Shown here: positions 1,697-55,432 of the stretch, in pieces
Numbering within the stretch: position 1 is the first letter of the stretch
Layout: the number at the start of each line of letters is the position of its first letter
NCBI GenBank assembly: GCA_900553835.1
Contig: USFF01000003.1
Coordinates: 4,183-68,182 of the forward strand
Length of the DNA stretch: 64,000 nucleotides
DNA from: an uncultured Mycoplasmatota bacterium
GTDB taxonomy: Bacteria; Bacillota_I; Bacilli_A; RF39; UBA660
Direction of reading: 5' to 3'
Program-made: the position numbers and the translations under genes
The notes under the pieces: generated by a model
The model's database searches: none
What the model saw: the letters and a program-made list of their open reading frames with translations, nothing else
What the model was told of the DNA's origin: nothing

Positions 1697-2449
1697 TTAG
1701 CATATTTTTAGTTTGTCTAAACGCATTTTATCCGCGATTGTTACTATGAATTCAGAGTTTGTTGGTTTTGCTTTGTCTATATCAACTGAATGACCAAATA
1801 TTTCTTCCATTAAATCCCAGTCTCCCCTGTTCCATGATACTTCTATTGCATGTCTTATTGCTCTTTCAACCCTTGTTACACTGGCATTGTATTTTTTACC
1901 AAGTTCTGGATATAGTTCTTTAGTTATCCCGCCTATTAATCCTTCATTTGAATATACCATTGATATTGCATCTCTTATGTATTGATAACCTTTTATATGC
2001 GAAGGTATTCCAAGCTCATGAAGTATTTTTGAAATTGTAACGTGAATTTCATTTGATTTTAGATCTAGTACTTCAGGAACTCTTTCATTACAAACTGATA
2101 TTATTCTTTTTTCTAAGTCTTTTAAGTCAAATGGTTTTAGAACAAAATATCTTACACCAAATTCACTTACGTTTCTAATTGTTTCTTGTTCATTGTAACT
2201 TGTAACTACTATTATATTTCTTTTTAAATTATTTTCTTTTATTTTTTCTAGTACATATATTCCATCTTTTCTAGGCATGATTAAATCTAGTAATACACAA
2301 TCATAATTTGTTTTTTCTATTTTTTCCCATGCTTCTTCTCCATCATAAGCAGTTGCAACTACTTCTATTGTTTCACTTTGTGAAAAGAACTCTTTTAACA
2401 TTTCTACCATTACTTTGTTATCATCTACTACTAAAATCTTTTTCTTCAT
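1697..2449 (-). CDS. spo0A: Sporulation master regulator Spo0A (receiver domain plus Spo0A-specific C-terminal DNA-binding domain)
   Basis: N-terminal receiver (VVDDN...LLDLIMP) and the C-terminal Spo0A signature (IHVTISKILHELGIPSHIKGYQYIRDAI ... EFIVTIADKMRL). Confidence 0.85.
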   Translation of the reverse strand: MKKKILVVDDNKVMVEMLKEFFSQSETIEVVATAYDGEEAWEKIEKTNYDCVLLDLIMPRKDGIYVLEKIKENNLKRNIIVVTSYNEQETIRNVSEFGVRYFVLKPFDLKDLEKRIISVCNERVPEVLDLKSNEIHVTISKILHELGIPSHIKGYQYIRDAISMVYSNEGLIGGITKELYPELGKKYNASVTRVERAIRHAIEVSWNRGDWDLMEEIFGHSVDIDKAKPTNSEFIVTIADKMRLDKLKIC

Positions 2450-22109: not shown

Positions 22110-22442
22110 TTATTCGTTTTTCTTATATTTAATTTTTTCATCAAATTCTACATAGTCTAGGTATATCATTAGGAGTAAATACCATTTACCTGTAGTTGGA
22201 TCTGACAATATAACATGGTCCCTTCCTGCTTGCTCGATTATGCCAGTAAATTCTTTATCTCTCCAGTTAACTGAGTCTGGAAAACTCATGTATACTTTTG
22301 CTTTTTTCCCTTTGTTATTTCTTAGTATGTTTTCAATGTAACTTTGTTCCATTGGTAATTCGTCATTATCATCTTTAGCATTTACTGGTTCATAACTTGA
22401 GTATGGGATGAAGTCTGAATTTTTGTAATAACTTCCATTCAT
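22110..22442 (-). CDS. Small spore-coat-like protein (possibly GerQ/YwdL family)
   Basis: 110-aa ORF. The family call rests on weak recollection of the C-terminal region. Confidence 0.3.
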   Translation of the reverse strand: MNGSYYKNSDFIPYSSYEPVNAKDDNDELPMEQSYIENILRNNKGKKAKVYMSFPDSVNWRDKEFTGIIEQAGRDHVILSDPTTGKWYLLLMIYLDYVEFDEKIKYKKNE

Positions 22443-26799: not shown

Positions 26800-27318
26800 T
26801 TAAAATATTTTGTCTATTATTTCTTTTATGAAAAATTTGTATTCTACATCATCGGTTTCTTCTGCTTCCATTAAGCACAATGGAGGAAAAAGAACACACC
26901 AGTAATTGTCTCCACTACCAGAACCTATTTTTACTACCATGGATTCATATTCTCCTGCTCCATATTTTACTCCCTTATATATTTTTTCTGGAAAATAGTT
27001 TGTCCCATAATTTATTTTAAAATCCATATTATAATTATTTTCTTTAAATACTTCTGATACTTTGTTTTCTACTAGATTTATATTTTCTTTTATACTTGTT
27101 CTTGCTTCATTTATTGTTTTTGATTTTTCTATTTCTTTTATTACACCGTCAATAGAAGTTTTTACCTGTTCTTTTATGTATAAATCTTTCGGTGCATTAC
27201 TATTTGGTATTATTCTAAATCTTACTGAATTTTTTGGTACAATTACATATTCTTCTTTCGTGTTTACTACTGAGTATACTATGGTTATTAATGCAAGCAC
27301 TATTATGATTTTTTTCAT
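26800..27318 (-). CDS. spoIIR: Stage II sporulation protein R
   Basis: Signal peptide. SpoIIR motifs FRIIPNSNAPKD and GSGDNYWCVLFPPLC. Confidence 0.8.
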   Translation of the reverse strand: MKKIIIVLALITIVYSVVNTKEEYVIVPKNSVRFRIIPNSNAPKDLYIKEQVKTSIDGVIKEIEKSKTINEARTSIKENINLVENKVSEVFKENNYNMDFKINYGTNYFPEKIYKGVKYGAGEYESMVVKIGSGSGDNYWCVLFPPLCLMEAEETDDVEYKFFIKEIIDKIF

Positions 27319-29182: not shown

Positions 29183-29617
29183 CTAAAGGTCAGAGTCCAT
29201 CTCATCATCAATTACTACTAAATCTTTGTATTCGTCTTCCGCTTCGTCATCGTCACTTTCTTTAGTTTCATCAATGTACATATCTTCTTCTATTTCTTCA
29301 TTTCTTTCTTCTTCTATTTCATCTGTTAAGTCTTCTTCGTCATCTAAATCAGTTAGTTCTATTTTTGCAGTGTGGTTTTCTCTTAGATCCCAATATCCGC
29401 CTTCTAACTGAATAAATCTTTTTTCAGTTGATAATAGACTAAAGAAGTCAGCTAAATGATTTTCAGCTTCCTCTTTGTTTAATTTTAACTGATCAATTAC
29501 TTCATTAAATAAATCAAGTAATTTCATTTTTTTTCCTTTTTCTTTTAGGATTACATATGCTATATCATCATATGACATAGTTTCAATTTGTTCTTCACTT
29601 ATACTTTTTAATTTCAT
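29183..29617 (-). CDS. rpoE: DNA-directed RNA polymerase delta subunit
   Basis: N-terminal HARE-HTH-like domain (MSYDDIAYVILKEKGK) and a highly acidic C-terminal tail. Confidence 0.7.
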   Translation of the reverse strand: MKLKSISEEQIETMSYDDIAYVILKEKGKKMKLLDLFNEVIDQLKLNKEEAENHLADFFSLLSTEKRFIQLEGGYWDLRENHTAKIELTDLDDEEDLTDEIEEERNEEIEEDMYIDETKESDDDEAEDEYKDLVVIDDEMDSDL

Positions 29618-29776
29618 TTTACAATCATTCCTTTTCCACTAAAATTATACTGAATTTTTTCAATAAATCAAGTCATTTTGTTAATCTTTTTTATTATATT
29701 CATATTTATTGTAAATTATATGTGTTTTTTACTTATATTTTTTTATATTTTTTTAATAATAATTGTAGGTGAATTT

Positions 29777-31717
29777 ATGAAAAGTAAGAGGTTAAAGATA
29801 TTAATTTTGTGTTATAAAATTTTTTGCTATTTTGTAATATTTATTTTTTTAGCACTTTTTGGATTTTATTTATATGCGTACATTACCCCTAAAATTGATG
29901 TACAAAGTAGCAATAGAATTATTTTATATGATGACAGTGATGAAGTTTTTTACCAAAATACTGCCACTAGTTCTTGGGTTAGTTTAGATGAAATTAGTCC
30001 TTATGCTATTAAAGGAATTGTGGATACAGAAGATAAAAACTTTTATAGTCATAATGGTTTTGATTATATGAGAATTATGAAAGCACTTTATAATGATATT
30101 AAAGCTGGTAATTTAAAGGAAGGCGCGAGTACAATTAGTCAGCAATATATTAAAAATTTGTTTTTGACTTTTGATAAGACTTGGGAAAGAAAACTAGAAG
30201 AGGCTTATCTTACTTTTGAACTTGAAGTTCATTATAATAAGAATGAGATCCTAGAAGGTTACATGAATACAATTAATTATGGGGCAGGTAATTATGGAAT
30301 AGAAGAGGCAAGTCTTTATTATTTTAATAAACATGCTAAAGATCTTACTCTTGCTGAAGCTTCTATTATAGTTGGTATTCCTAAAAATCCTACATATTAT
30401 AATCCAGTTTATTATTACGATAATGCTAAAGCTAGACAAAAAATAGTTTTAAATAGCATGTTTAATATGGGACATATTACTAAGGAAGAGATGGAAAATG
30501 CTTATAATGAAGAACTTTCTTTTTATGGTAAGAAGTCTAGTAATTTTATTGTTAGTTCGTTGTACTATAAAGATGCGGTTATGGATGAACTTAATTCAAT
30601 AGATGAAATTCCTAAAAGTTTAATAGAAACTGGGGGTTTAAAGGTTTATACTTATCTAAATAGTGATGCACAGAGAAATTTAGAAAATATTATTTCTGAA
30701 GAAATGGAAAACACTGGCGAGTTAGAAGTAGGGGCTATGATAAGAAGTCCTAAAAATGGCGCAATTGTAGCTCTTATTGGTGGCACTAATTATAATGAGA
30801 CAGAGTATAATAGAGTTACAAAGGCTAAAAGGCAAGTTGGTTCTACTTTTAAACCTATTCTTTATTATTCTGCTTTAGAAAACGGAATGACTGCTACTAG
30901 TACTTTTGTAAGTGAAAAGACAACATTTTCTTTAGGGGAAGATGAGAGTTATTCTCCAAGTAATTTTGCTGATAAGTACGCTAATAAGTCTATAACTATG
31001 GCGGATGCTCTTGTACTTTCAGATAATATTTTTGCTGTTAAGACTCATTTGTTTCTTGGTACTGATAATTTAAAGAATACAGCAAAAAGAATGGGTATTA
31101 AAACAAGTCTACCTAGTAATGCTAGTTTGGCTTTAGGTACTAGTGAAATTAATATGGTTGATTATAGTAATGCTTTTCAAACTCTTGCAAATTATGGAAT
31201 TAGAAATAATCCTGTTTATATAAAAAAAGTAACTGATTTAAATGACAATGTAATATATGAAGCTAAATATGAAGAGGAAAATGTTTTAGATAAGAGGTAT
31301 GTATATATTTTAAATGAGATGCTAACAAACTCTTATAATTATGACTATATTGACTATGCTTCACCAACACTTTTAAGTGTTAAAAATTTAATTAATCATA
31401 AGTATGCAGTTAAGTCAGGAACTACTGATACAGATTATTGGGTTGTTGGGTATAACCCAGAAGCTCTTGTTCTAGTCTGGAATGGTTATGATGATAATAG
31501 GTCGGTTGAAAAGGTTTCTTCAAAGATTACAAAGAAAATATGGGCTAGAAGTATAGAAGCTTATCTCGGAGAAAAAGAGAGTGCATGGTATAATATTCCT
31601 AGAGGAGTTACAGGTGCGATTGTTAACCCAATAAGCGGAAGTACTACTGATTTAAGTGTAAAAGATCTTATGTTTTATGTTAAGGGAACTGAACCTGATT
31701 ATGTTAAGGAATATTAA
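29777..31717 (+). CDS. Class A penicillin-binding protein (glycosyltransferase GT51 plus transpeptidase)
   Basis: Start reset to MKSKRLKIL (AGGTGA SD). GT51 motifs EDKNFYSHNGFD and GASTISQQYIKN; transpeptidase motifs STFKP, SDN, KSGTT. Confidence 0.85.
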   Translation: MKSKRLKILILCYKIFCYFVIFIFLALFGFYLYAYITPKIDVQSSNRIILYDDSDEVFYQNTATSSWVSLDEISPYAIKGIVDTEDKNFYSHNGFDYMRIMKALYNDIKAGNLKEGASTISQQYIKNLFLTFDKTWERKLEEAYLTFELEVHYNKNEILEGYMNTINYGAGNYGIEEASLYYFNKHAKDLTLAEASIIVGIPKNPTYYNPVYYYDNAKARQKIVLNSMFNMGHITKEEMENAYNEELSFYGKKSSNFIVSSLYYKDAVMDELNSIDEIPKSLIETGGLKVYTYLNSDAQRNLENIISEEMENTGELEVGAMIRSPKNGAIVALIGGTNYNETEYNRVTKAKRQVGSTFKPILYYSALENGMTATSTFVSEKTTFSLGEDESYSPSNFADKYANKSITMADALVLSDNIFAVKTHLFLGTDNLKNTAKRMGIKTSLPSNASLALGTSEINMVDYSNAFQTLANYGIRNNPVYIKKVTDLNDNVIYEAKYEEENVLDKRYVYILNEMLTNSYNYDYIDYASPTLLSVKNLINHKYAVKSGTTDTDYWVVGYNPEALVLVWNGYDDNRSVEKVSSKITKKIWARSIEAYLGEKESAWYNIPRGVTGAIVNPISGSTTDLSVKDLMFYVKGTEPDYVKEY

Positions 31718-31719
31718 AA

Positions 31720-31746
31720 AGATTAAACGTTTATTTTGTTTAATCT
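31720..31746. terminator. Bidirectional terminator hairpin AGATTAAAC-N9-GTTTAATCT between the convergent PBP and noc genes
   Basis: Perfect 9-bp stem, with T-rich tracts on both strands. The noc stop codon lies in the 3' arm. Confidence 0.5.
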
Positions 31747-32846
31747 TTCTTTATTTTTATTATTATTTGGTACATGTCTTCAAAATCAAATTCTTCTGTG
31801 TCAACATTAAAGCCCATGTTTTCTATTTTTCTTGCTTCTTCTCTAGCACTGTTGATTGCATTTTTGATGTTCTTACCTTCATTGATTGGTGTATTTTGTT
31901 CTATTTCAGGTTCTTTTGTACTTTCATATTCTGCTATTATGCTACTTTTTGGAATACTTTGTGTGTTTTCTAATGCAGGTTTTTCAAAGCTTTGAGAAGG
32001 TAATTCAAAATCCATTATTTCTGGTTCTATTTCTTGGAATGGATTTATCATTACTTCTTTTTTCTCTACTGTAGGCTCTGGTTTTATAGGAACTTGCGGT
32101 TTTAAAAGAGCATCAATATCTTTAGGTACGTATTCAGTTATTATATCTTTTGACTCTTGTTTTTCTTTTTCTATATCTACATCATTAGGATTAATACTCA
32201 TAGGTGTTTCTCTTTTTATTTCGTTATTTTGTGGTCTTTCTTTACCTAATAGTTTTGCTATTTCTTCATCAGCTTGTCTTACAGTTAATCTTTCATTCAT
32301 TATTCTGTTTAACATGTTAATTTGTTCAGTGTTGTCTGTTATGTTTAATAAACTTCTTGCATGTCTTTCAGATATTTTGTTATGAAGTAATGCTTCTTTT
32401 ACTGGTATTGTCAGATTTAAAAGTCTTAATTTGTTAGCTATAGTCGATTGTGCTACTCCCATTCTTGCTGCTAAACTCTCTTGTGTCAGATAACCCATAT
32501 CTAATATTTTTTTGTAACTTTGTGCTTCTTCAATAGCAGTTAAGTCTTTTCTCTGTAAGTTTTCTACTACAGCAACTTCAGCACTTTTTTGATCATCTAT
32601 ATTCATAATGACAGCTGGAACAGTTTTTAGGCCTGCCAAAACAGAAGCCTTGTATCTTCTTTCTCCAGCAATTATTTCAAATTTGTCTCCAATTCTTCTA
32701 AGTACTAATGGTTGGATTATTCCATGCATCTTTATCGATTCAGATAACTCTTTTAATTCCTTTTCATCAAAAGCAAGTCTTGGTTGGAACCTGTTAGGAA
32801 TTATGTCATCTATGTTTACATTAATTATTTCATTTTCTCGGTTCAT
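31740..32846 (-). CDS. noc: ParB-family nucleoid occlusion protein Noc-like (368 aa), with no adjacent parA/soj or spo0J
   Basis: ParB N-terminal domain (PNRFQPR, GIIQP, IAGERRYKA). The HTH region carries Noc-type residues (QSTIANKLRLL, KISERHAR) rather than the Spo0J-type (PHIANHLRLL, LSMGHGR). Conserved acidic/hydrophobic C-terminus. Located directly after rsmG, as in B. subtilis. Confidence 0.7.
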   Translation of the reverse strand: MNRENEIINVNIDDIIPNRFQPRLAFDEKELKELSESIKMHGIIQPLVLRRIGDKFEIIAGERRYKASVLAGLKTVPAVIMNIDDQKSAEVAVVENLQRKDLTAIEEAQSYKKILDMGYLTQESLAARMGVAQSTIANKLRLLNLTIPVKEALLHNKISERHARSLLNITDNTEQINMLNRIMNERLTVRQADEEIAKLLGKERPQNNEIKRETPMSINPNDVDIEKEKQESKDIITEYVPKDIDALLKPQVPIKPEPTVEKKEVMINPFQEIEPEIMDFELPSQSFEKPALENTQSIPKSSIIAEYESTKEPEIEQNTPINEGKNIKNAINSAREEARKIENMGFNVDTEEFDFEDMYQIIIKIKKD

Positions 32847-35513: not shown

Positions 35514-36866
35514 TTATTTTCCTAAACAAAATTTACTAAATATCTCATCAAGTAATTCATCTTTATATGTTTCTCCAGTTAATTCACCTAATTTTTCCCA
35601 TAATCTTTGTAAGTCGATCTGTATTAAGTCAACTGGTGTGTTTAATTCATTTTGCTTTTCTATTTCTTTACCAATATTTAAGCATTCTTTTATTATACTT
35701 ATTTGTCTAGCGTTTGATAGATATGTGTAATCACTATTTTCTATTTCTTCTAAATCAAACATTTCTTTTATTTTATCTAATAATTTGTCTATTCCTTTAT
35801 TTTCTTTTATGGATATTTCAATAGTGCTAAAGTTTTTTAATTTGGTTCTATCTAATTTTTGTTCTAAATCTATTTTATTGATTAGTACTATTACTTTTTT
35901 ATTTTTTAGGTTACTTAGTATTTCTAAATCCTCTTCATCAAATTCTCTACTTCCATCAAATAAAGCAATTACTAAATCGCTTTTTTCTATTATATTTTTA
36001 CTTTTTTCTACACCAATTTTTTCTACAACATCATCTGTATTTCTTATTCCTGCTGTGTCAATTAAATTTAGATTTATACCATTTACTATTATTGTACCTT
36101 CAACTATATCTCTAGTTGTTCCCGCAACATTTGTTACTATAGCTTTGTCTTCGTTTATTAGTTTGTTTAGTAAACTGCTTTTCCCTACGTTAGGTTTTCC
36201 GATTATTCCTACATTTATACCATTTTTTATAAGTGTACCTTTATCACTTTCTTTTACTATTTTATTTAGTAAATTATTTATTTCTGTTATTTTACTTTTT
36301 AATAGTTCATTTGTATACATAATTGCATCTTCATATTCAGGGTAATCTATATTAACTTCTACGTTTGCTATTATATTAAGTAAGGTTTCTCTTAGATTTT
36401 TTACTATCTTAGATAAGTCTCCTGTTACACCCTTAGTACTCATTTTTCTTGCTACTTCTGTTTTGGCATTAATTAGATCACTTATAGACTCTGCTTCTAG
36501 CAAATCTTTTTTTCCATTTAAAAATGAACGTTTTAAAAATTCACCTGGCTCGGCTAGTCTACAACCATTTATTAAAAGCAATTCAAGTATTTTATTTGTG
36601 ACAGATATTCCTCCATGTGAGTTAATTTCTATTACATCTTCCCCAGTTGAAGAATTAGGTGCGATAAAAACTGAAACTAATACTTCATCAATTATTTCAT
36701 CTTCATTTTTTATGAATCCATAGTTAATTGTTCCTGATTTTTTTCTTGTTAAGTCACTTGTAAATAAACTGTTTACTATACTTATTGCTTTCGGACCGCT
36801 TATTTTTATTATATTTATTGCACTTACACCAACGCTAGTTGCAATTGCACATATTGTATCTGTCAT
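35514..36866 (-). CDS. mnmE: tRNA modification GTPase MnmE (TrmE)
   Basis: G-domain GKPNVGKSSLLN, DTAGIR, NKIDL, and C-terminal CLGK. Confidence 0.9.
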   Translation of the reverse strand: MTDTICAIATSVGVSAINIIKISGPKAISIVNSLFTSDLTRKKSGTINYGFIKNEDEIIDEVLVSVFIAPNSSTGEDVIEINSHGGISVTNKILELLLINGCRLAEPGEFLKRSFLNGKKDLLEAESISDLINAKTEVARKMSTKGVTGDLSKIVKNLRETLLNIIANVEVNIDYPEYEDAIMYTNELLKSKITEINNLLNKIVKESDKGTLIKNGINVGIIGKPNVGKSSLLNKLINEDKAIVTNVAGTTRDIVEGTIIVNGINLNLIDTAGIRNTDDVVEKIGVEKSKNIIEKSDLVIALFDGSREFDEEDLEILSNLKNKKVIVLINKIDLEQKLDRTKLKNFSTIEISIKENKGIDKLLDKIKEMFDLEEIENSDYTYLSNARQISIIKECLNIGKEIEKQNELNTPVDLIQIDLQRLWEKLGELTGETYKDELLDEIFSKFCLGK

Positions 36867-36927
36867 AATTTTTTTTCCTCCTTTTGCGCATAAATTATAC
36901 CACTTTGAAAAGAATATGTAAATTACT

Positions 36928-36943
36928 TATTTCCCGGGAAATA
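36928..36943. promoter_or_regulatory. Noc-binding-site-type palindrome TATTTCCCGGGAAATA (matches the B. subtilis NBS consensus ATTTCCCGGGAAAT)
   Basis: Perfect 16-bp GC-cored palindrome in an AT-rich intergenic region between jag and mnmE. An identical copy lies at 55141-55156. Confidence 0.5.
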
Positions 36944-36965
36944 AAAAAAACTAGTTTTTCTAGTT
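36941..36965 (-). terminator. Rho-independent terminator after jag (AACTAG-loop-CTAGTT followed by a U8 run on the minus-strand transcript)
   Basis: Hairpin plus T-run seen on the reverse strand; overlaps the jag stop codon. Confidence 0.4.
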
Positions 36966-37575
36966 ATTTTTCTTTGTATTTAATAATTACACATCTATTT
37001 GGTTCTTCTCCAACACTTTCTGTAACTATGTATTCAAATTTAGATAAAGCATTATGGACAATTCTTCTTTGATATGAATTCATAGGATCTAATTTAACAT
37101 CTACTTTTGATAAAGTTACTTGTCTTGCTAATTTTTTTGCATCCTTTTCAAGAAAATAATTTTGCTTTTCTTTGTAGTTTTCTATGTCTAATTCTACATT
37201 TACATGTACTTCAAATTTTGCATTTATTACTTGCTTTAAATACTTTTGTAATGATGATAATACTGCACCATTTTTACCAATTAGTATTCCATTGTTATTT
37301 GAATGAACTCTGTAGGATACTTTTTTATTTCTTATTTGTTTTTCTATATTTCCTTCAATATTAAAACCTTTTAATATATTTTCTAACACTGTTTTTCCAT
37401 AATTAGCTATGTCATTTATTTTTACAATTTCAATAACAACCTTTTTGGCCGCGAATAAGCCACCTTTTTCTTCTTTTTCTTTTATTAACACTTCATCTTC
37501 AGTTACGTTTAACTCATTTAGCGCTTCTTTTAATATAGTTTCTTTATTTTTTCCTTTATATATATACTTTTCCAT
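36964..37575 (-). CDS. jag: Jag/KhpB-type protein (Jag_N, KH and R3H domains)
   Basis: 203-aa ORF in the conserved position after yidC, with a KH/R3H-like C-terminus. Confidence 0.8.
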   Translation of the reverse strand: MEKYIYKGKNKETILKEALNELNVTEDEVLIKEKEEKGGLFAAKKVVIEIVKINDIANYGKTVLENILKGFNIEGNIEKQIRNKKVSYRVHSNNNGILIGKNGAVLSSLQKYLKQVINAKFEVHVNVELDIENYKEKQNYFLEKDAKKLARQVTLSKVDVKLDPMNSYQRRIVHNALSKFEYIVTESVGEEPNRCVIIKYKEK

Positions 37576-38824: not shown

Positions 38825-38878
38825 ATATAATCACCTGTTAGATTTATTTTATACAAAAAAACTACTCTTTGCAAGTAG

Positions 38879-39001
38879 TTATTTGTTTGTTAAATTTTTT
38901 CTTCCTTTTTTTCTTCTACTTTTTAATATATTTTTACTTCTTGAAAGAAAACCTTGTTTTTTTGCTTTATTGTTCTTTTTAGCAACTGGTGTTAATTTCA
39001 T
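38879..39001 (-). CDS. rpmH: 50S ribosomal protein L34 (40 aa; absent from the ORF track because under 60 aa)
   Basis: Hand translation of the reverse strand gives MKLTPVAKKNNKAKKQGFLSRSKNILKSRRKKGRKNLTNK. GGAGG SD upstream; canonical position before rnpA. Confidence 0.8.
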   Translation of the reverse strand: MKLTPVAKKNNKAKKQGFLSRSKNILKSRRKKGRKNLTNK

Positions 39002-39028
39002 TTTTTTCTCCTCCTAACTTTTTTTTGC

Positions 39029-39267
39029 TTGACTTCTAAAATTATAAACTATAGAATAGTATTTGTCAATTTATTATTTATTAACATATTAACATTTTAT
39101 GTTGATAACTTTATTAACAGGTTGATACTTAAATTTGTTGATAATGTGAATAAGTTGGTTTAAGTGCTGTAAAATGGGATAAAAATGTGTGTACAATCTG
39201 TTAATAAGTCATGTTAATAACATTTTTTTAAAATTTTTACTTTTAAAATAGAATAAAAAGGGTTAAA
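39029..39267. other. oriC region: cluster of DnaA-box-like 9-mers upstream of dnaA (TGTTGATAA at 39100 and 39137, GGTTGATAC at 39120, TGTTAATAA at 39199 and 39212), plus a TTGACT-N17-TAGAAT promoter-like element
   Basis: The boxes are 1-2 mismatches from TGTGGATAA. Gene strand polarity switches here, in the canonical rpmH | dnaA context. Confidence 0.6.
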
Positions 39268-42035: not shown

Positions 42036-42078
42036 ACTCACTTTGTTATTATATCGTCCCAAGAAAGGGGGTATATGG

Positions 42079-42531
42079 ATGTATAATATCAATGATGAGA
42101 CTTTAGCAGTTTTGCCTGTTAATAGAAATAACTGTGAAATACTTGAAAAAAATGCTAATTTAATTATTAAATGTTCATCTTTAAAAGTTATTGAATATAG
42201 TTGTGAGTATTTCGGTGTTCAATATAAAAATAGAGTTAATTGTACTTATAACTTCATAAGAACAAGATATAAGGCTCCAGTTGTAATTGAAGAACATAGT
42301 AGAATTATATTTTTTCCTCTTGTATCACCTAAAAATGAAAATAATCTTTGGATAAGTTATAATAATATTTTAGATTATTGTCCTAGTAAGTGGAAAAAAG
42401 AAACAAAAGTTAAATTTAAAAACGGTGTTTCTATTGATGTTCCAGTCTCATTTTATATTTTTAACTGTCAATATTCAAAAGCAGCAAGACTTTATTCTTC
42501 TTATGAGATAAGAACTTCAAAAAAATGGTAG
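42079..42531 (+). CDS. comK: ComK-family competence transcription factor homologue (150 aa)
   Basis: Start reset to MYNINDE (AAAGGGGG SD 7 nt upstream). Blocks recalled from B. subtilis ComK align: AVLP, SC.FFG..Y..R...TY, K.P......I.FFP..S......WIS, KF.NG....VP.S...FN.QY..A.L. Confidence 0.65.
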   Translation: MYNINDETLAVLPVNRNNCEILEKNANLIIKCSSLKVIEYSCEYFGVQYKNRVNCTYNFIRTRYKAPVVIEEHSRIIFFPLVSPKNENNLWISYNNILDYCPSKWKKETKVKFKNGVSIDVPVSFYIFNCQYSKAARLYSSYEIRTSKKW

Positions 42532-48229: not shown

Positions 48230-48781
48230 TGTTCCACGTGGAACATTTGGAGATTATATGATAATCTCCTTTTTTTATATATTTTTTGTTAAAGACTAAA
48301 TTTATTTTGAAATTTTGTGTGTTAAGTTTATTGTTTTTTTATAAAATGTTTAAATGCAACAATTTAACAATGTTCCACGTGGAACATTGTTAAAAATCAA
48401 AATAAAACTTCGAATTAAAATATGTTAATTTTTTTTGCTGATTTTGGTTAACATATAAATAATTTTTATCGTTTTTAAAGTTAAGCATTATAGAATGTTT
48501 CACGTGAAACATTCTATTTAAACATTTTAATGTTAAATTTTATATTAAAATGTTCTCTTATTTTTTTAATAGTTCAATTTAATGTTCCACGTGGAACATT
48601 AAATAATTACTATTATTTATAAAATTGTTTTTTTTTATAATTTTTATAGTTATTAACTTTCATGTATTAAAATCTGCTATGATTGTCACTTAATAATTAT
48701 AATTATAAGCATTTATTTCTGAAATAGTATAATTTTAAGTTATTAACATTTTTTTGCAAAACTTATGTTCCACGTGAAACA
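48230..48781. repeat. Array of five parS (ParB/Spo0J centromere) palindromes in the non-coding region downstream of gyrA. Cores at 48230-48245, 48371-48386, 48496-48511, 48583-48598 and 48766-48781.
   Basis: Copies 1, 2 and 4 read TGTTCCACGTGGAACA, copy 3 reads TGTTTCACGTGAAACA, copy 5 reads TGTTCCACGTGAAACA. All match the parS consensus TGTTNCACGTGAAACA. The flanks extend to perfect palindromes of 20-30 bp (for example 48364-48393, 30 bp). Confidence 0.75.
48249..48276 (+). terminator. Rho-independent terminator of gyrA (GGAGATTAT-ATG-ATAATCTCC followed by T7)
   Basis: Perfect 9-bp stem, 3-nt loop, U-tract; 23 nt after the gyrA stop. Confidence 0.65.
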
Positions 48782-48841
48782 TTAGATAGATTTTAAACTA
48801 TAAAAATTGATTGTAAGTTGTTTATTTGATATAATCTAGTT

Positions 48842-48919
48842 GTGCAACAAATGGCATAGAAACAGGTCAGGACTGGAAAGTAGCAGCTTTAATATTAACC
48901 ATTTGTGTGCACTTTTTTT
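48842..48919 (+). ncRNA. ffs: Small signal-recognition-particle RNA (4.5S/scRNA-type, about 75 nt) with its own TTGATT-N17-TATAAT promoter at 48807-48835
   Basis: A single long hairpin. The 5' GUGCAACAAAUGG pairs with the 3' CCAUUUGUGUGCAC. The apical CAGGUCAGGACUGGAAAGUAGCAGC matches SRP RNA domain IV (E. coli CAGGUCAGGUCCGGAAGGAAGCAGC), with a compensatory ACU/AGU helix closing the GGAA tetraloop. A U7 tail follows. Confidence 0.55.
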
Positions 48920-48930
48920 AAGGAGATAAC

Positions 48931-49341
48931 ATGAATAGTGAAGATAAATATTATAAAATTTTATTTAAATTAGCTTTAAAAGCTTATAAAAAAAATGAAG
49001 TACCGGTGGCATCTATAGTGGTTAGAAATGGTGAAATTATTTCAAAGGCTTATAATAAGCGCTATAATACGCATAATCCACTAAATCATGCTGAAATAAT
49101 TGCTATTAAAACTGCATGCAAACGATTGAAAACGTGGAAATTAGATGATTGTGATATTTATGTAACTTTAAAACCTTGTAAAATGTGCTGTGAAGTAATT
49201 AAACAGTCTAGGATACATAATGTTTATTTTTTTACTGATAATACAAAAGATATTAACTTTAAAACTAATTTTATTAAATTAGGAGATAAAGACAAAACGT
49301 TTTCAAAGTTATTAACAATTTTTTTTGAAAAATTAAGATAA
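48931..49341 (+). CDS. tadA: tRNA-specific adenosine deaminase TadA
   Basis: CDA-fold zinc motifs HAE (NHAEIIAI) and PCKMC; 136 aa. Confidence 0.85.
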   Translation: MNSEDKYYKILFKLALKAYKKNEVPVASIVVRNGEIISKAYNKRYNTHNPLNHAEIIAIKTACKRLKTWKLDDCDIYVTLKPCKMCCEVIKQSRIHNVYFFTDNTKDINFKTNFIKLGDKDKTFSKLLTIFFEKLR

Positions 49342-49395
49342 AAAGGTATATTTATATATTTATAAATGTTATAATTTTTTTGTATGGAGGTATTT

Positions 49396-51075
49396 ATGTC
49401 GTATACTGCTTTATATAGAAAATATAGGCCTCAAAACTTTAAAAATGTTGTTGGGCAGGATATTGTAGTTGATGTATTAAAAAACTCAATTATTAACAAA
49501 AAAATTTCTCATGCTTATTTATTTACTGGCCCTAGAGGTACAGGTAAAACAAGCATTGCTAAAATTTTTGCACATGCTGTAAACTGTGAAAATTTTAAAA
49601 GTGATATTTGTAATGAATGTAATTCTTGTATTTATTTAAGTACAAATGACAGTGACATTATTGAAATCGATGCTGCTAGTAATAATGGCGTTGATGAAAT
49701 TAGAACATTAAGAGAAAATGTTAAATTAATGCCAGCATTCTGTAGATATAAAATATATATTATTGATGAAGTTCATATGTTATCTATAGGAGCTTTTAAT
49801 GCTTTGTTAAAGACACTTGAGGAGCCTCCTAAACATGTTATATTTATTTTAGCTACAACTGAACCTAGTAAGATACCTTTAACAATATTGTCTAGATGTC
49901 AAAGATTTGATTTTAAGAAAATTTCTATTGAAGACTTGATTTCAAGATTAAAATATATTATAGGGTGTGAAGACAGACATATTTCAGATGAAGTATTAAA
50001 GAAAATCGCGGAAAATTCAGATGGAGGGCTAAGAGATGCAATTAATTTACTTGATCAAACCCTATCTTTACCAGATGATTTGATTTCAGAAAGTGAAATT
50101 GATAAACTTTCTGGAAACATTCCTAAGGATTTTATTAATAAACTTGTTGATGTTATATTTACGGCAAATTATGTGGAATTTTTATCAGTAAGTGAACATA
50201 TTTCTGAAAATAGTTATAACTTTACAAATATAATTGATTTTATTTTGGTTTTTTTAAGAGATTATAGTATAAATTTGACGGTTTCCAATTATTTTGAGGC
50301 TGAGTATAAAAATTATTTATCTAAATATTCTTTTAAAATTGAGGAATTGACTAGATTTACTAAAATTCTTAATGATTTATCAAATGAATTAAAAAAATCA
50401 AATAATCAAAAAATGGTTTTTGATATTTATATGTTTGAATTGATGAATAATATTCAAGTTAAGAAAGTTATCAACAGTTCTAAACCAATTGATAACATTC
50501 GAAATGATGCATCAGGCATTATTGACAAAGAAACTGATGATGTTGTTCAAACTGATGAAACTTTAAGCACAACTGAGCATATTGTAAGAGATGATGTTAG
50601 CAGTAAATTTTTTGAGGAAATTCAAAAAGTAAGAATAAATAATGTATTAGCAGAGGCTGATAAAAATATTTTGATGGCTATCAATAATAAATATGATAAA
50701 ATTAATGATTATTTATCAAGTCAAACTTATAATATTGTGGCAAGTTTGCTGTTGTCGGGCAAAGTTGTTGTTGCATCGTCAAAATATTTATTATTTGCAT
50801 TTAATAGTGATTCTGATTTAATAAAGTTTAATCATAAAATAAATCAAATAGAAACTTTTGTTAAAGAACTTTTTGATACTTCTTATAAAGTTATCGGACT
50901 TACAAAGACTGATTGGGAAAAATGTAAAAATAGTTATATAAATAACAAAAAAAATAATATTAGGTATGTATTTATTGATGAAAATGATGTAAAATTAGAA
51001 GAGGTGGATAACCACGCTGAGTTTGAAGGCGATGCATTAAATATTTTTGGTGATGACACAGTTAGTGTTAAGTGA
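49396..51075 (+). CDS. dnaX: DNA polymerase III subunit tau (gamma/tau)
   Basis: Start reset to MSYTALYRKYRPQNF (GGAGG SD). Walker A GPRGTGKTS, DEVHML, SRC motif. Confidence 0.9.
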   Translation: MSYTALYRKYRPQNFKNVVGQDIVVDVLKNSIINKKISHAYLFTGPRGTGKTSIAKIFAHAVNCENFKSDICNECNSCIYLSTNDSDIIEIDAASNNGVDEIRTLRENVKLMPAFCRYKIYIIDEVHMLSIGAFNALLKTLEEPPKHVIFILATTEPSKIPLTILSRCQRFDFKKISIEDLISRLKYIIGCEDRHISDEVLKKIAENSDGGLRDAINLLDQTLSLPDDLISESEIDKLSGNIPKDFINKLVDVIFTANYVEFLSVSEHISENSYNFTNIIDFILVFLRDYSINLTVSNYFEAEYKNYLSKYSFKIEELTRFTKILNDLSNELKKSNNQKMVFDIYMFELMNNIQVKKVINSSKPIDNIRNDASGIIDKETDDVVQTDETLSTTEHIVRDDVSSKFFEEIQKVRINNVLAEADKNILMAINNKYDKINDYLSSQTYNIVASLLLSGKVVVASSKYLLFAFNSDSDLIKFNHKINQIETFVKELFDTSYKVIGLTKTDWEKCKNSYINNKKNNIRYVFIDENDVKLEEVDNHAEFEGDALNIFGDDTVSVK

Positions 51076-53858: not shown

Positions 53859-54561
53859 TTTAGTCGGATATCATAATTTGAAAATAGTTCAAAATACTAA
53901 ATATTTTAATTTTAGCTTGGAGTCAGTATTGGTTCCAAGATTTTGTAATTTAAAGAAGAATATGAAAATAATAGATTTTTGTACTGGGAATGCTCCTATT
54001 CCATTGATTCTTAGTACATTAACTAATTCTAATATTATAGGTGTTGAAATTCAAAAAGAAGTATTTGAACTTGCTGTTCAATCTATTGAACTCAATAATC
54101 TTGAAGATAGAGTGAAAATTTTAAATATGGATGTGAAAAATCTAAGTGAAGTGTTTGAAACAGATACATTTGATTTAATTACTTGTAATCCACCATATTT
54201 TAAGGTTGTTGAATCTAGTAATTTAAATGATAATGAGATTAAAACTAATGCTAGACATGAAACTCTAATTGATTTAAAGGATATTTTAAGTGTTTGTAAA
54301 AAACTTTTAAAAAATAATGCCTCTTTAGTAATGGTTCATAGAACCGAGAGAGTAACTGAAATTCTAACTAAAATGAAGGAATATAATTTGGAGCCTAAAA
54401 GAATTAGATTTATTTATCCTAAAATGGGAGAAAATTCTAATTTAGTTTTGATAGAAGCAAGGAAAAATGGTAAAATAGGAGCGAAAGTATTGCCTCCATT
54501 ATATTGTCATAATAAAGATGGATCATATACTGAAGAAGTACTTAGAATGTTTGAGAGGTGA
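53830..54561 (+). CDS. SAM-dependent N6-adenine methyltransferase (YabB/TrmN6-like)
   Basis: NPPY motif (CNPPYF) and SAM-binding IDFCTGNAPIPL. Confidence 0.65.
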   Translation: MMNVENVINDLVGYHNLKIVQNTKYFNFSLESVLVPRFCNLKKNMKIIDFCTGNAPIPLILSTLTNSNIIGVEIQKEVFELAVQSIELNNLEDRVKILNMDVKNLSEVFETDTFDLITCNPPYFKVVESSNLNDNEIKTNARHETLIDLKDILSVCKKLLKNNASLVMVHRTERVTEILTKMKEYNLEPKRIRFIYPKMGENSNLVLIEARKNGKIGAKVLPPLYCHNKDGSYTEEVLRMFER

Positions 54562-54568
54562 GAAAAAC

Positions 54569-55432
54569 ATGATACAAAGAAGTTATTTAGATAGTAAATC
54601 AAATTGTTATATAATTCCTACACCAATTGGAAATATGGAAGATATTACTTTGAGAGCAATTAGGCTTCTAAAGAAAGTTGATGCTATTTTTGCTGAAGAT
54701 ACTAGGGTTACTCAAAATTTACTTACTAATTTAAAAATTAAAAATAAAATTTATCAGTGTCAAAAATTTAATGAAATAAAAGCTAGCAAACTTATGATTA
54801 AATTGCTTAATGAAGGCAAGAATATAGCTGTTGTAACAGATAGAGGGACTCCATTAATAAGTGATCCTGGGTATGTGGCACTTAAAAGTGTTGTTAAAGA
54901 AGGTTATAATATTATTGCTTTGCCAGGCGCTAGTGCTTTACTCCCGGCAATTAATATGTCTAATTTAGATCAAGACAAATTTTTATTTTATGGATTTTTA
55001 GATTCTAAAGAATCGGCATTAATTAAAGAACTTGAAAGCATAAAAGATTTAAAGTTTACAATTATTTTATATGAAGCACCACATAGACTTTATAAAACTT
55101 TACAAAATGTCTTAAAAATATTGGGAAATAGGCAGATTAGTATTTCCCGGGAAATAACTAAACTTCATGAAGAGGTTTTTAGGGGAAGCGTTTTGGAAGC
55201 TTTGGATAACTATAAAGGTGATGTTAAAGGTGAAATAGTTATTGTAATAGAAAAAGGAAATACTACAAATAATATTGATGATGCTTATTTAAAATGTGTA
55301 GAACTTGTTTCTTTAGGAATGTCTAGTAAAAATGCTATTAAGTATATTTCTAGAGAATTGGGCGTTAGTAAAAATGAACTTTATGATATGTATGAGGTGA
55401 AGAAAAATGAAACTGATAGTGGGATTAGGTAA
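54569..55432 (+). CDS. rsmI: 16S rRNA (cytidine1402-2'-O)-methyltransferase RsmI
   Basis: Start reset to MIQRSYLDSK (GAGAGGTGA SD). TPIGN motif; tetrapyrrole-methylase fold. Confidence 0.85.
   Translation: MIQRSYLDSKSNCYIIPTPIGNMEDITLRAIRLLKKVDAIFAEDTRVTQNLLTNLKIKNKIYQCQKFNEIKASKLMIKLLNEGKNIAVVTDRGTPLISDPGYVALKSVVKEGYNIIALPGASALLPAINMSNLDQDKFLFYGFLDSKESALIKELESIKDLKFTIILYEAPHRLYKTLQNVLKILGNRQISISREITKLHEEVFRGSVLEALDNYKGDVKGEIVIVIEKGNTTNNIDDAYLKCVELVSLGMSSKNAIKYISRELGVSKNELYDMYEVKKNETDSGIR
55141..55156. promoter_or_regulatory. Second copy of the Noc-binding-site-type palindrome TATTTCCCGGGAAATA, inside the rsmI coding sequence (codons I-S-R-E-I)
   Basis: Identical 16-mer to 36928-36943. The GC-rich core CCCGGG is rare in this AT-rich sequence. 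Confidence 0.45.

Follow-up and report, generated by a model that had tools for sequence, protein, structure and literature searches.

The window, that is, the whole 64-kb stretch of DNA analysed here, carries a probable replication origin, an array of parS sites, a ParB-family gene and two copies of a palindrome that matches the Noc-binding site (NBS). These features and the genes next to them are as follows.

31740-32846, minus strand: noc, a ParB/CTPase paralogue of 368 aa and the putative reader of the NBS, directly downstream of rsmG
35514-36866, minus strand: mnmE, bordering the 97-bp gap that holds NBS copy 1
36894-36922, minus strand: sigma-70-type promoter of mnmE (TTTACA, 17 nt, TG-TATAAT; 11 of 12 matches)
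36928-36943, no strand: NBS copy 1, in the jag-mnmE intergenic gap, about 2 kb left of oriC
36964-37575, minus strand: jag, bordering the 97-bp gap on its other side
38825-39267, no strand: probable oriC, the rnpA/rpmH-dnaA intergenic region at the GC-skew switch
39100-39153, no strand: DnaA-box-like sites inside the probable oriC
48230-48781, no strand: parS array of five sites, TGTTyCACGTGrAACA at 48230, 48371, 48496, 48583 and 48766
48838-48918, plus strand: bacterial small SRP RNA gene (RF00169, 48.6 bits), after the parS array and before ORF 48931-49341 and dnaX
54518-55432, plus strand: rsmI (TIGR00096, 240 bits)
55141-55156, no strand: NBS copy 2, inside rsmI codons 208-214, about 16 kb right of oriC

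A switch in GC skew at 38-40 kb coincides with the divergent pair rnpA (minus strand) and dnaA (plus strand), which places oriC at about 38.8-39.3 kb. The parS array lies between the two NBS copies, in the 600 bp of non-coding DNA that separate gyrA from the SRP RNA gene (ffs), and is made up of three copies of TGTTCCACGTGGAACA, one of TGTTTCACGTGAAACA and one of TGTTCCACGTGAAACA. When up to three mismatches to parS were allowed there were 12 strand-matches in the window as against about 1.4 in shuffles, and the array is predicted to be a ParB loading zone. The noc gene is the only ParB-family gene in the window. No second ParB or Soj gene was found in the window and 10 kb beyond each of its ends, and no soj or spo0J within about 49 kb left and 35 kb right of oriC, despite the perfect parS sites. 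The adjacency of rsmG and noc is kept, and in the place of soj-spo0J the genes after noc are a convergent one for a class A PBP and that of the RNA polymerase delta subunit (29183-32846; L001-L013). A ComK-family gene (42043-42531) is located between dnaN and recF, and this placement is conserved in nearly all related loci; Bacillus has yaaA/rlbA between these two genes. The sporulation genes spo0A, spoIIR, gerQ, spoIID and a spoVT-like gene were also seen (window positions 1697-2449, 26800-27318 and 22110-22442; contig L215), as was an agr-like quorum-sensing cassette (AgrB, a LytTR regulator and a histidine kinase) just right of the window (L215). Together these genes indicate a spore-forming lifestyle of this uncultured low-GC Bacilli lineage.

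The 16-bp perfect palindrome TATTTCCCGGGAAATA has exactly two matches in the window. A sequence-only reading of this DNA had reported these two copies, one intergenic between jag and mnmE and the other in rsmI, and both positions and contexts were found to be exact, with no other copy in the window. It had put the expectation of a chance recurrence below 1e-4; not even one copy was found in any of 100 dinucleotide-preserving shuffles of the window, and the expectation from base composition (about 27% GC) is about 1.6e-5 copies per 64 kb. A scan of the window with up to three mismatches to the 14-mer core added no further NBS and thus there is no background of degenerate copies. The same reading had taken the palindrome to be the B. 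subtilis NBS, and the literature bears this out: the published consensus is 5'-ATTTCCCGGGAAAT-3' (PMC3020112), and the duplex that was co-crystallised with Noc, GGATATTTCCCGGGAAATATCC, includes the identical 16-mer (PMC7383237). The window palindromes have T/A flanks as in that duplex. Both window sites agree exactly with the NBS definition, namely, the palindrome ATTTCCCGGGAAAT, and not with the definition of parS (TGTTNCACGTGAAACA, with G at position 1 and A at position 6), since they have A1 and C6; NBS and parS differ at two positions per half-site.

The mnmE promoter is conserved in relatives, and its -35 hexamer has copy 1 on its upstream side, 5 nt away. The palindrome is kept in all same-species contigs (L001-L010), in relatives with 72-73% Noc identity, and, more widely, in 10 of the 33 related species that have a readable jag-mnmE gap, with a variable distance between site and promoter. 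A terminator or RNA hairpin was ruled out for copy 1 because there is no terminator-like site and the fold z-score is -0.24.

Copy 2 is also present in the same-species contig L215. Codons 208-214 of rsmI read AGT ATT TCC CGG GAA ATA ACT and code for S I S R E I T. CGG is the rarest Arg codon in the window genes (2 of 617), and TCC makes up 33 of 1233 Ser codons. The codons ATT TCC CGG GAA ATA give a perfect NBS at the same place in 22 of 48 rsmI orthologues of related species, and the proteins of these 22 are merely 44-64% identical to that of the window. The synonymous positions that flank the site vary among the orthologues. Orthologues with the same amino acids that do not have the NBS use ordinary codons, for example, ATA TCG AGA GAA ATT, and the pattern is all-or-none. 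In eight species whose rsmI is without the embedded site, an NBS is present directly 3' of the gene. The use of rare codons and the conservation of both sites in related species show that the NBS of the window are held by selection at the level of the DNA. The relative L071 has GTT TCA CGT GAA ATA at these codons of rsmI, which is TGTTTCACGTGAAATA, one mismatch from parS, and this position may alternate between the NBS and the parS type of site.

The protein encoded by noc has the Pfam domains ParB_N and HTH_ParB, the motifs GERRYKA and ENLQR with the GERR CTP motif intact, and a Noc-like C-terminal domain. Among solved structures it is closest to those of Noc (7nfu, 7ng0 and 7ol9; E about 3e-58), with ParB/Spo0J ranking behind. 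Of the NCBIfam families, TIGR04285 'nucleoid occlusion protein' fits best, at 285.2 bits, which is below the curated cutoff of 315. Alignments were guided by B. subtilis Noc and Spo0J sequences, the former of which agrees with the PDB alignment and with published mutant names. The recognition region reads QSTIANKLRLLNL...SERHAR, and the four specificity positions, in Caulobacter ParB numbering, are Q173, K179, N184 and R201, where Noc has QKKR and Caulobacter ParB has RTAG. Only Asn at 184, a position at which Lys is nearly invariant in described Nocs, departs from the canonical set of four. As shown by Jalal et al., adenine 1 is recognised by Q173 and cytosine 6 by R201, these two residues switch specificity, and one Lys at either 179 or 184 is enough for NBS specificity. 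QKNR is compatible with this rule, having Q173, R201 and one Lys, and because Q173, K179 and R201 are present the protein is expected to favour NBS over parS. Of the earlier statement that a ParB paralogue with Noc-type residues is adjacent to the palindrome, the residues stand and the adjacency is not immediate, the gene being about 4 kb from copy 1.

The N-terminus of this protein is not that of a typical Noc. Its alignment to the Geobacillus and B. subtilis Noc begins at about residue 26 of these proteins, and only 16 residues precede PNRFQPR as against 39 in B. subtilis Noc. An N-terminal extension of the ORF was ruled out by an in-frame stop 8 codons upstream of an ATG that has a good RBS. 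The hydrophobic moment of the N-terminus is 0.27 and its charge is -1, compared with 0.50 and +2 for B. subtilis Noc. From the start of the alignment, the unextendable ORF and the low hydrophobic moment, it follows that the amphipathic membrane-targeting helix (about aa 1-10), on which the known mechanism of Noc depends, is absent. The literature describes this helix as highly conserved and as predicted in every homologue examined, and Noc without its 10 residues (NocN-delta-10) neither binds liposomes nor supports nucleoid occlusion. What the protein has is a linker of 125 aa (residues about 206-330) that is acidic (net -12) and Pro-rich. No relocated amphipathic basic helix was found in this linker, the top-scoring segments of the protein being inside its folded domains. 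Short motifs in the linker, namely, VDIEKEK..SKDII, PKDIDALLKPQ and INPFQEIEPEIMDF, are conserved between the window protein and subfamily representatives (P0121-P0270).

A profile-free search of 1.8 billion proteins showed that this anchor-less Noc lineage comprises more than 150 clusters at 50% identity, and the best 150 cluster representatives were taken as the subfamily set. Among these best representatives, 148 of 150 have a short N-terminus (14-21 residues before PNRFQPR), 128 have the specificity residues QKNR and all 150 have the GERR motif; the C-terminal end of the EEFDFEDMYQIIIKI type is conserved in the representatives inspected. Their length ranges from 263 to 848 aa and their linker, with a median of 232 aa, is acidic and carries an NPF motif in 46 of the 150. 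Judged from this set, the anchor-less form is that of a whole subfamily and not an artefact of gene calling. Other low-GC Nocs (L105 and L142) do have MK(F/I)PF(L/F) N-termini. In one relative, L144, the anchor-less noc adjoins a canonical soj-spo0J, and the Spo0J encoded there has the residues RTNG, including the parS-specific R173 and G201. Since both genes are present side by side in L144, the anchor-less Noc is an addition to ParB and not a replacement. No description of an anchor-less Noc was found in the literature, the coverage of which was incomplete, and this is weak evidence of novelty.

The distribution of NBS was examined in 80 loci around gyrA from related GTDB genomes with GyrA 69-89% identical, which are uncultured gut Bacilli including 'Clostridium sp. 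CAG:628'. The origin regions of these relatives, 1.48 Mb in all, contain 144 exact NBS 14-mers as against about 0.003 expected from base composition, and only about 17 one-mismatch variants. The places at which NBS are positionally conserved in the lineage are the jag-mnmE gap, the gyrA-ffs gap, the dnaX linker, rsmI and polA. The gyrA-ffs gap has a median length of 757 bp and reaches 2.9 kb; of 98 loci, 85 have parS arrays in it (0-11 parS per gap) and 55 have NBS (as many as seven per gap). In one sub-lineage (L034, L042, L049, L050, L056, L057 and L061) a composite module follows gyrA at locus coordinates of about 12.7-14.2 kb. It consists of an NBS, a DnaA box, aatTT(A/T)TCCACA, and a parS, in the sequence ATTTCCCGGGAAAT-aatTTATCCACA-TGTTTCACGTGAAACA, with an offset of 26-27 nt from NBS to parS and 2-3 repeats per genome spaced by 300-600 bp. 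The module is absent from the window. A general enrichment of DnaA boxes in the gyrA gap of relatives was considered and set aside since it is weak (1.2 vs 0.8 per kb), the module being a feature of the sub-lineage. An NBS was also seen in the variable linker of dnaX in a number of loci (L023, L024, L026, L034-L036, L039, L042, L043, L049 and L050, and further L054-L057, L073, L079, L085 and L093). It is read there in two frames, as IISREII or NYFPGN, and it appears that the DNA site sets the peptide. There is no NBS in dnaX of the window (49384-51075).

Metagenomes were scanned with an extended 20-mer, ATTATTTCCCGGGAAATAAT, that covers 55% of the NBS in relatives and that neither window copy matches. 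At least 120 loci were obtained, 114 of them low-GC. Among the matches listed, 97 of the 114 low-GC loci (85%) are in an origin gene block like that of the window, 9 flank polA/fpg, 2 are fragments of parS arrays, and 6 are unassigned, three of which are no longer than 1.6 kb. Among the matches listed, no NBS position outside the origin block recurs except the vicinity of polA; in these loci (L099, L117, L124, L135, L156, L178, L193, L195 and L201) the site is upstream of polA or between polA and fpg/mutM, and at least three of the nine polA/fpg loci share a contig with an origin locus. In the species of the window, no NBS beyond the two copies was found in about 84 kb around oriC. The share of 97 of 114 loci in the origin block is evidence against scattered NBS, and the NBS of this clade appear to cluster around oriC, often interleaved with parS arrays, which points away from the gradient along the ori-ter axis that the sequence-only reading had proposed. 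This result for the clade rests on the ATTATTTCCCGGGAAATAAT scan, and there may be scattered sites elsewhere in the species of the window.

The most likely explanation, which we hold with good confidence, is that the palindromes are loading sites of the Noc-lineage CTPase encoded at 31740-32846 and that the system likely organises the origin domain, tethering along the whole chromosome being less likely. The role in the origin domain is favoured over membrane tethering because the protein has no amphipathic helix and the NBS are confined around oriC. By homology, a dimer would nucleate on each palindrome, bind CTP, close to a clamp and slide onto the flanking DNA. By analogy with S. aureus Noc, which spreads 8-10 kb around its sites (PMC5540599), clamps loaded at copy 1 would cover a zone of several kb with oriC, dnaA and the mnmE-noc operon, and clamps loaded at copy 2 would cover a second such zone in the rsmI region. 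The ParB zone that starts from the five parS sites after gyrA would lie between these two zones. The system might then mark or organise the origin domain or, through partners of the acidic linker, couple it to initiation or division, which is the weaker part of this proposal. The sequence-only reading had suggested a functional Noc-NBS system near oriC, and this is supported by the conservation of both sites against codon bias, with the provision that the membrane helix of the textbook system is absent. Since there is no membrane anchor and NBS are found almost only around the origin, the variant is probably not quite textbook Noc in action. It would be a genuine Noc-NBS pair that apparently represents an undescribed, anchor-less, long-linker and origin-focused variant.

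If canonical nucleoid occlusion were at work instead, Noc would tether DNA to the membrane via its own helix and block the Z-ring, and the two sites would be part of a chromosome-wide set. The site, the protein lineage and the position of the gene next to rsmG are all those of such a system, S. aureus and B. subtilis Noc have the same consensus (PMC5540599), and only about 84 kb of the genome of this species was read. We nevertheless regard it as unlikely because the 10-aa targeting sequence needed for membrane binding and occlusion is absent here and in nearly all of the best representatives, the linker is acidic and not basic, and the NBS matches of the clade, among those listed, are concentrated in the origin block. 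A membrane link could still be made through another protein or an unrecognised motif, which is conceivable. That copy 1 abuts the mnmE promoter raises the different proposal that the palindrome is an operator for local transcription, for example, in autoregulation of the mnmE-mnmG-rsmG-noc operon. The promoter is a strong one, the NBS-promoter block is conserved in close relatives, and in two of them (L023 and L024) an NBS is directly upstream of an extended -10. Copy 2, however, is deep inside rsmI, the distance from site to promoter varies, and the sites of relatives in the dnaX coding sequence, in the gyrA-ffs gap, 3' of rsmI and beside polA have no promoter geometry in common; an operator is therefore not the general role of the NBS, and we consider this proposal improbable. 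Any operator effect may be a by-product of Noc binding, and an influence on the mnmE-mnmG-rsmG-noc operon is possible in that way.

The remaining possibilities, that the palindrome is due to chance, is a restriction-related feature built on CCCGGG, is a variant parS bound by ParB, or belongs to a dispersed repeat or mobile element, are taken together extremely improbable. Chance is opposed by the shuffles and by the 144 copies in relatives. The palindrome does include a SmaI/XmaI site, and the only two CCCGGG hexamers of the window are in its two copies; against about 0.4 expected per 64 kb at the GC content of the window, these two amount to neither avoidance nor excess. Binding by ParB is made thinkable by the small difference between NBS and parS, just two positions per half-site, and by the near-parS codons in L071, but R173 and G201 belong to the separate Spo0J of relatives (RTNG) and true parS sites are present elsewhere in the window. 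As for a repeat, the sequence common to both copies outside the palindrome is limited to a few A/T bases and hence they are not part of anything longer.

Noc serves as the model both for the control of membrane binding by a CTP switch and for nucleoid occlusion in Firmicutes. The lineage described here would be a natural experiment, having kept NBS recognition and the CTP motif, with the anchor absent and the sites at the origin paired with parS, and an anchor-less Noc separates the role of NBS-loaded clamps from that of membrane tethering. It is also relevant to how Noc arose from ParB and to the still unexplained connection of Noc with replication initiation, and rsmI and dnaX are clear cases in which a protein-binding site overrides codon choice, and even the peptide, inside essential genes. 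We tentatively go further, in a proposal that may well prove wrong, that in a large lineage of uncultured low-GC gut Bacilli Noc has lost its anchor and gained an acidic disordered linker, that its NBS have contracted to the surroundings of oriC, and that it forms a second, ParB-independent CTP-clamp system that is 'centromere-like' and serves to organise the origin domain or to gate initiation or division. It would then be either a repurposed Noc or a still extant form midway between ParB and Noc. Should the sites prove scattered on a whole-genome map and another anchor come to light, this would be an ordinary Noc-NBS system in a new taxon.

In the textbook system NBS number in the tens around the chromosome and are missing from the terminus region. 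The pair in the window is like B. subtilis Noc-NBS (Wu & Errington; Adams 2015, PMC4331003; Jalal 2020/2021, PMC7383237, PMC8429893) in the identical 14/16-bp palindrome, in the ParB-family protein with its GERR CTP motif and Q173, K179 and R201, in the gene adjoining rsmG, and in the C-terminal domain (TEEFDFE..YQIIIKI in the window protein, TEEEEFEEYIQLTIRI in B. subtilis). It is unlike it in that the window protein has neither the N-terminal amphipathic helix nor the alpha-2 helix and starts where NocN-delta-26 starts, has Asn and not Lys at 184, and has the long acidic Pro-rich linker where B. subtilis Noc has the short basic RKPKPRRK; in addition, soj-spo0J are not adjacent to noc here, and NBS are scattered in B. 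subtilis whereas they are clustered at oriC in the clade of the window. The NBS core is shared with S. aureus Noc (PMC5540599), a protein that also holds back replication initiation and shows a minor peak at dnaA, a situation to which the NBS 2 kb from oriC may be analogous. S. aureus Noc has, however, 41 sites with a B. subtilis-like spread and is localised to the membrane, whereas the sites seen here are few and close to the origin, and the protein has no anchor. RacA-ram of B. subtilis and RicO-ricS of S. aureus (bioRxiv 10.64898/2026.03.06.710092) are similar in having a handful of specific, origin-restricted sites, but these proteins have unrelated folds and a membrane or pole anchor of their own, of which none is visible in the window protein. 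With the ParB(Spo0J)-parS centromere the pair shares the CTP-clamp family and palindromic 16-bp sites near oriC, some of them inside conserved genes, and relatives have NBS interspersed with parS in the gyrA-ffs gap, in some cases in the form of fixed NBS-DnaA box-parS modules. The two differ in the A1/C6 of NBS as against the G1/A6 of parS and in the N-terminal ParA-activating peptide, which the window protein does not have, and in L144, which has the anchor-less Noc, a separate canonical Spo0J is present together with Soj.
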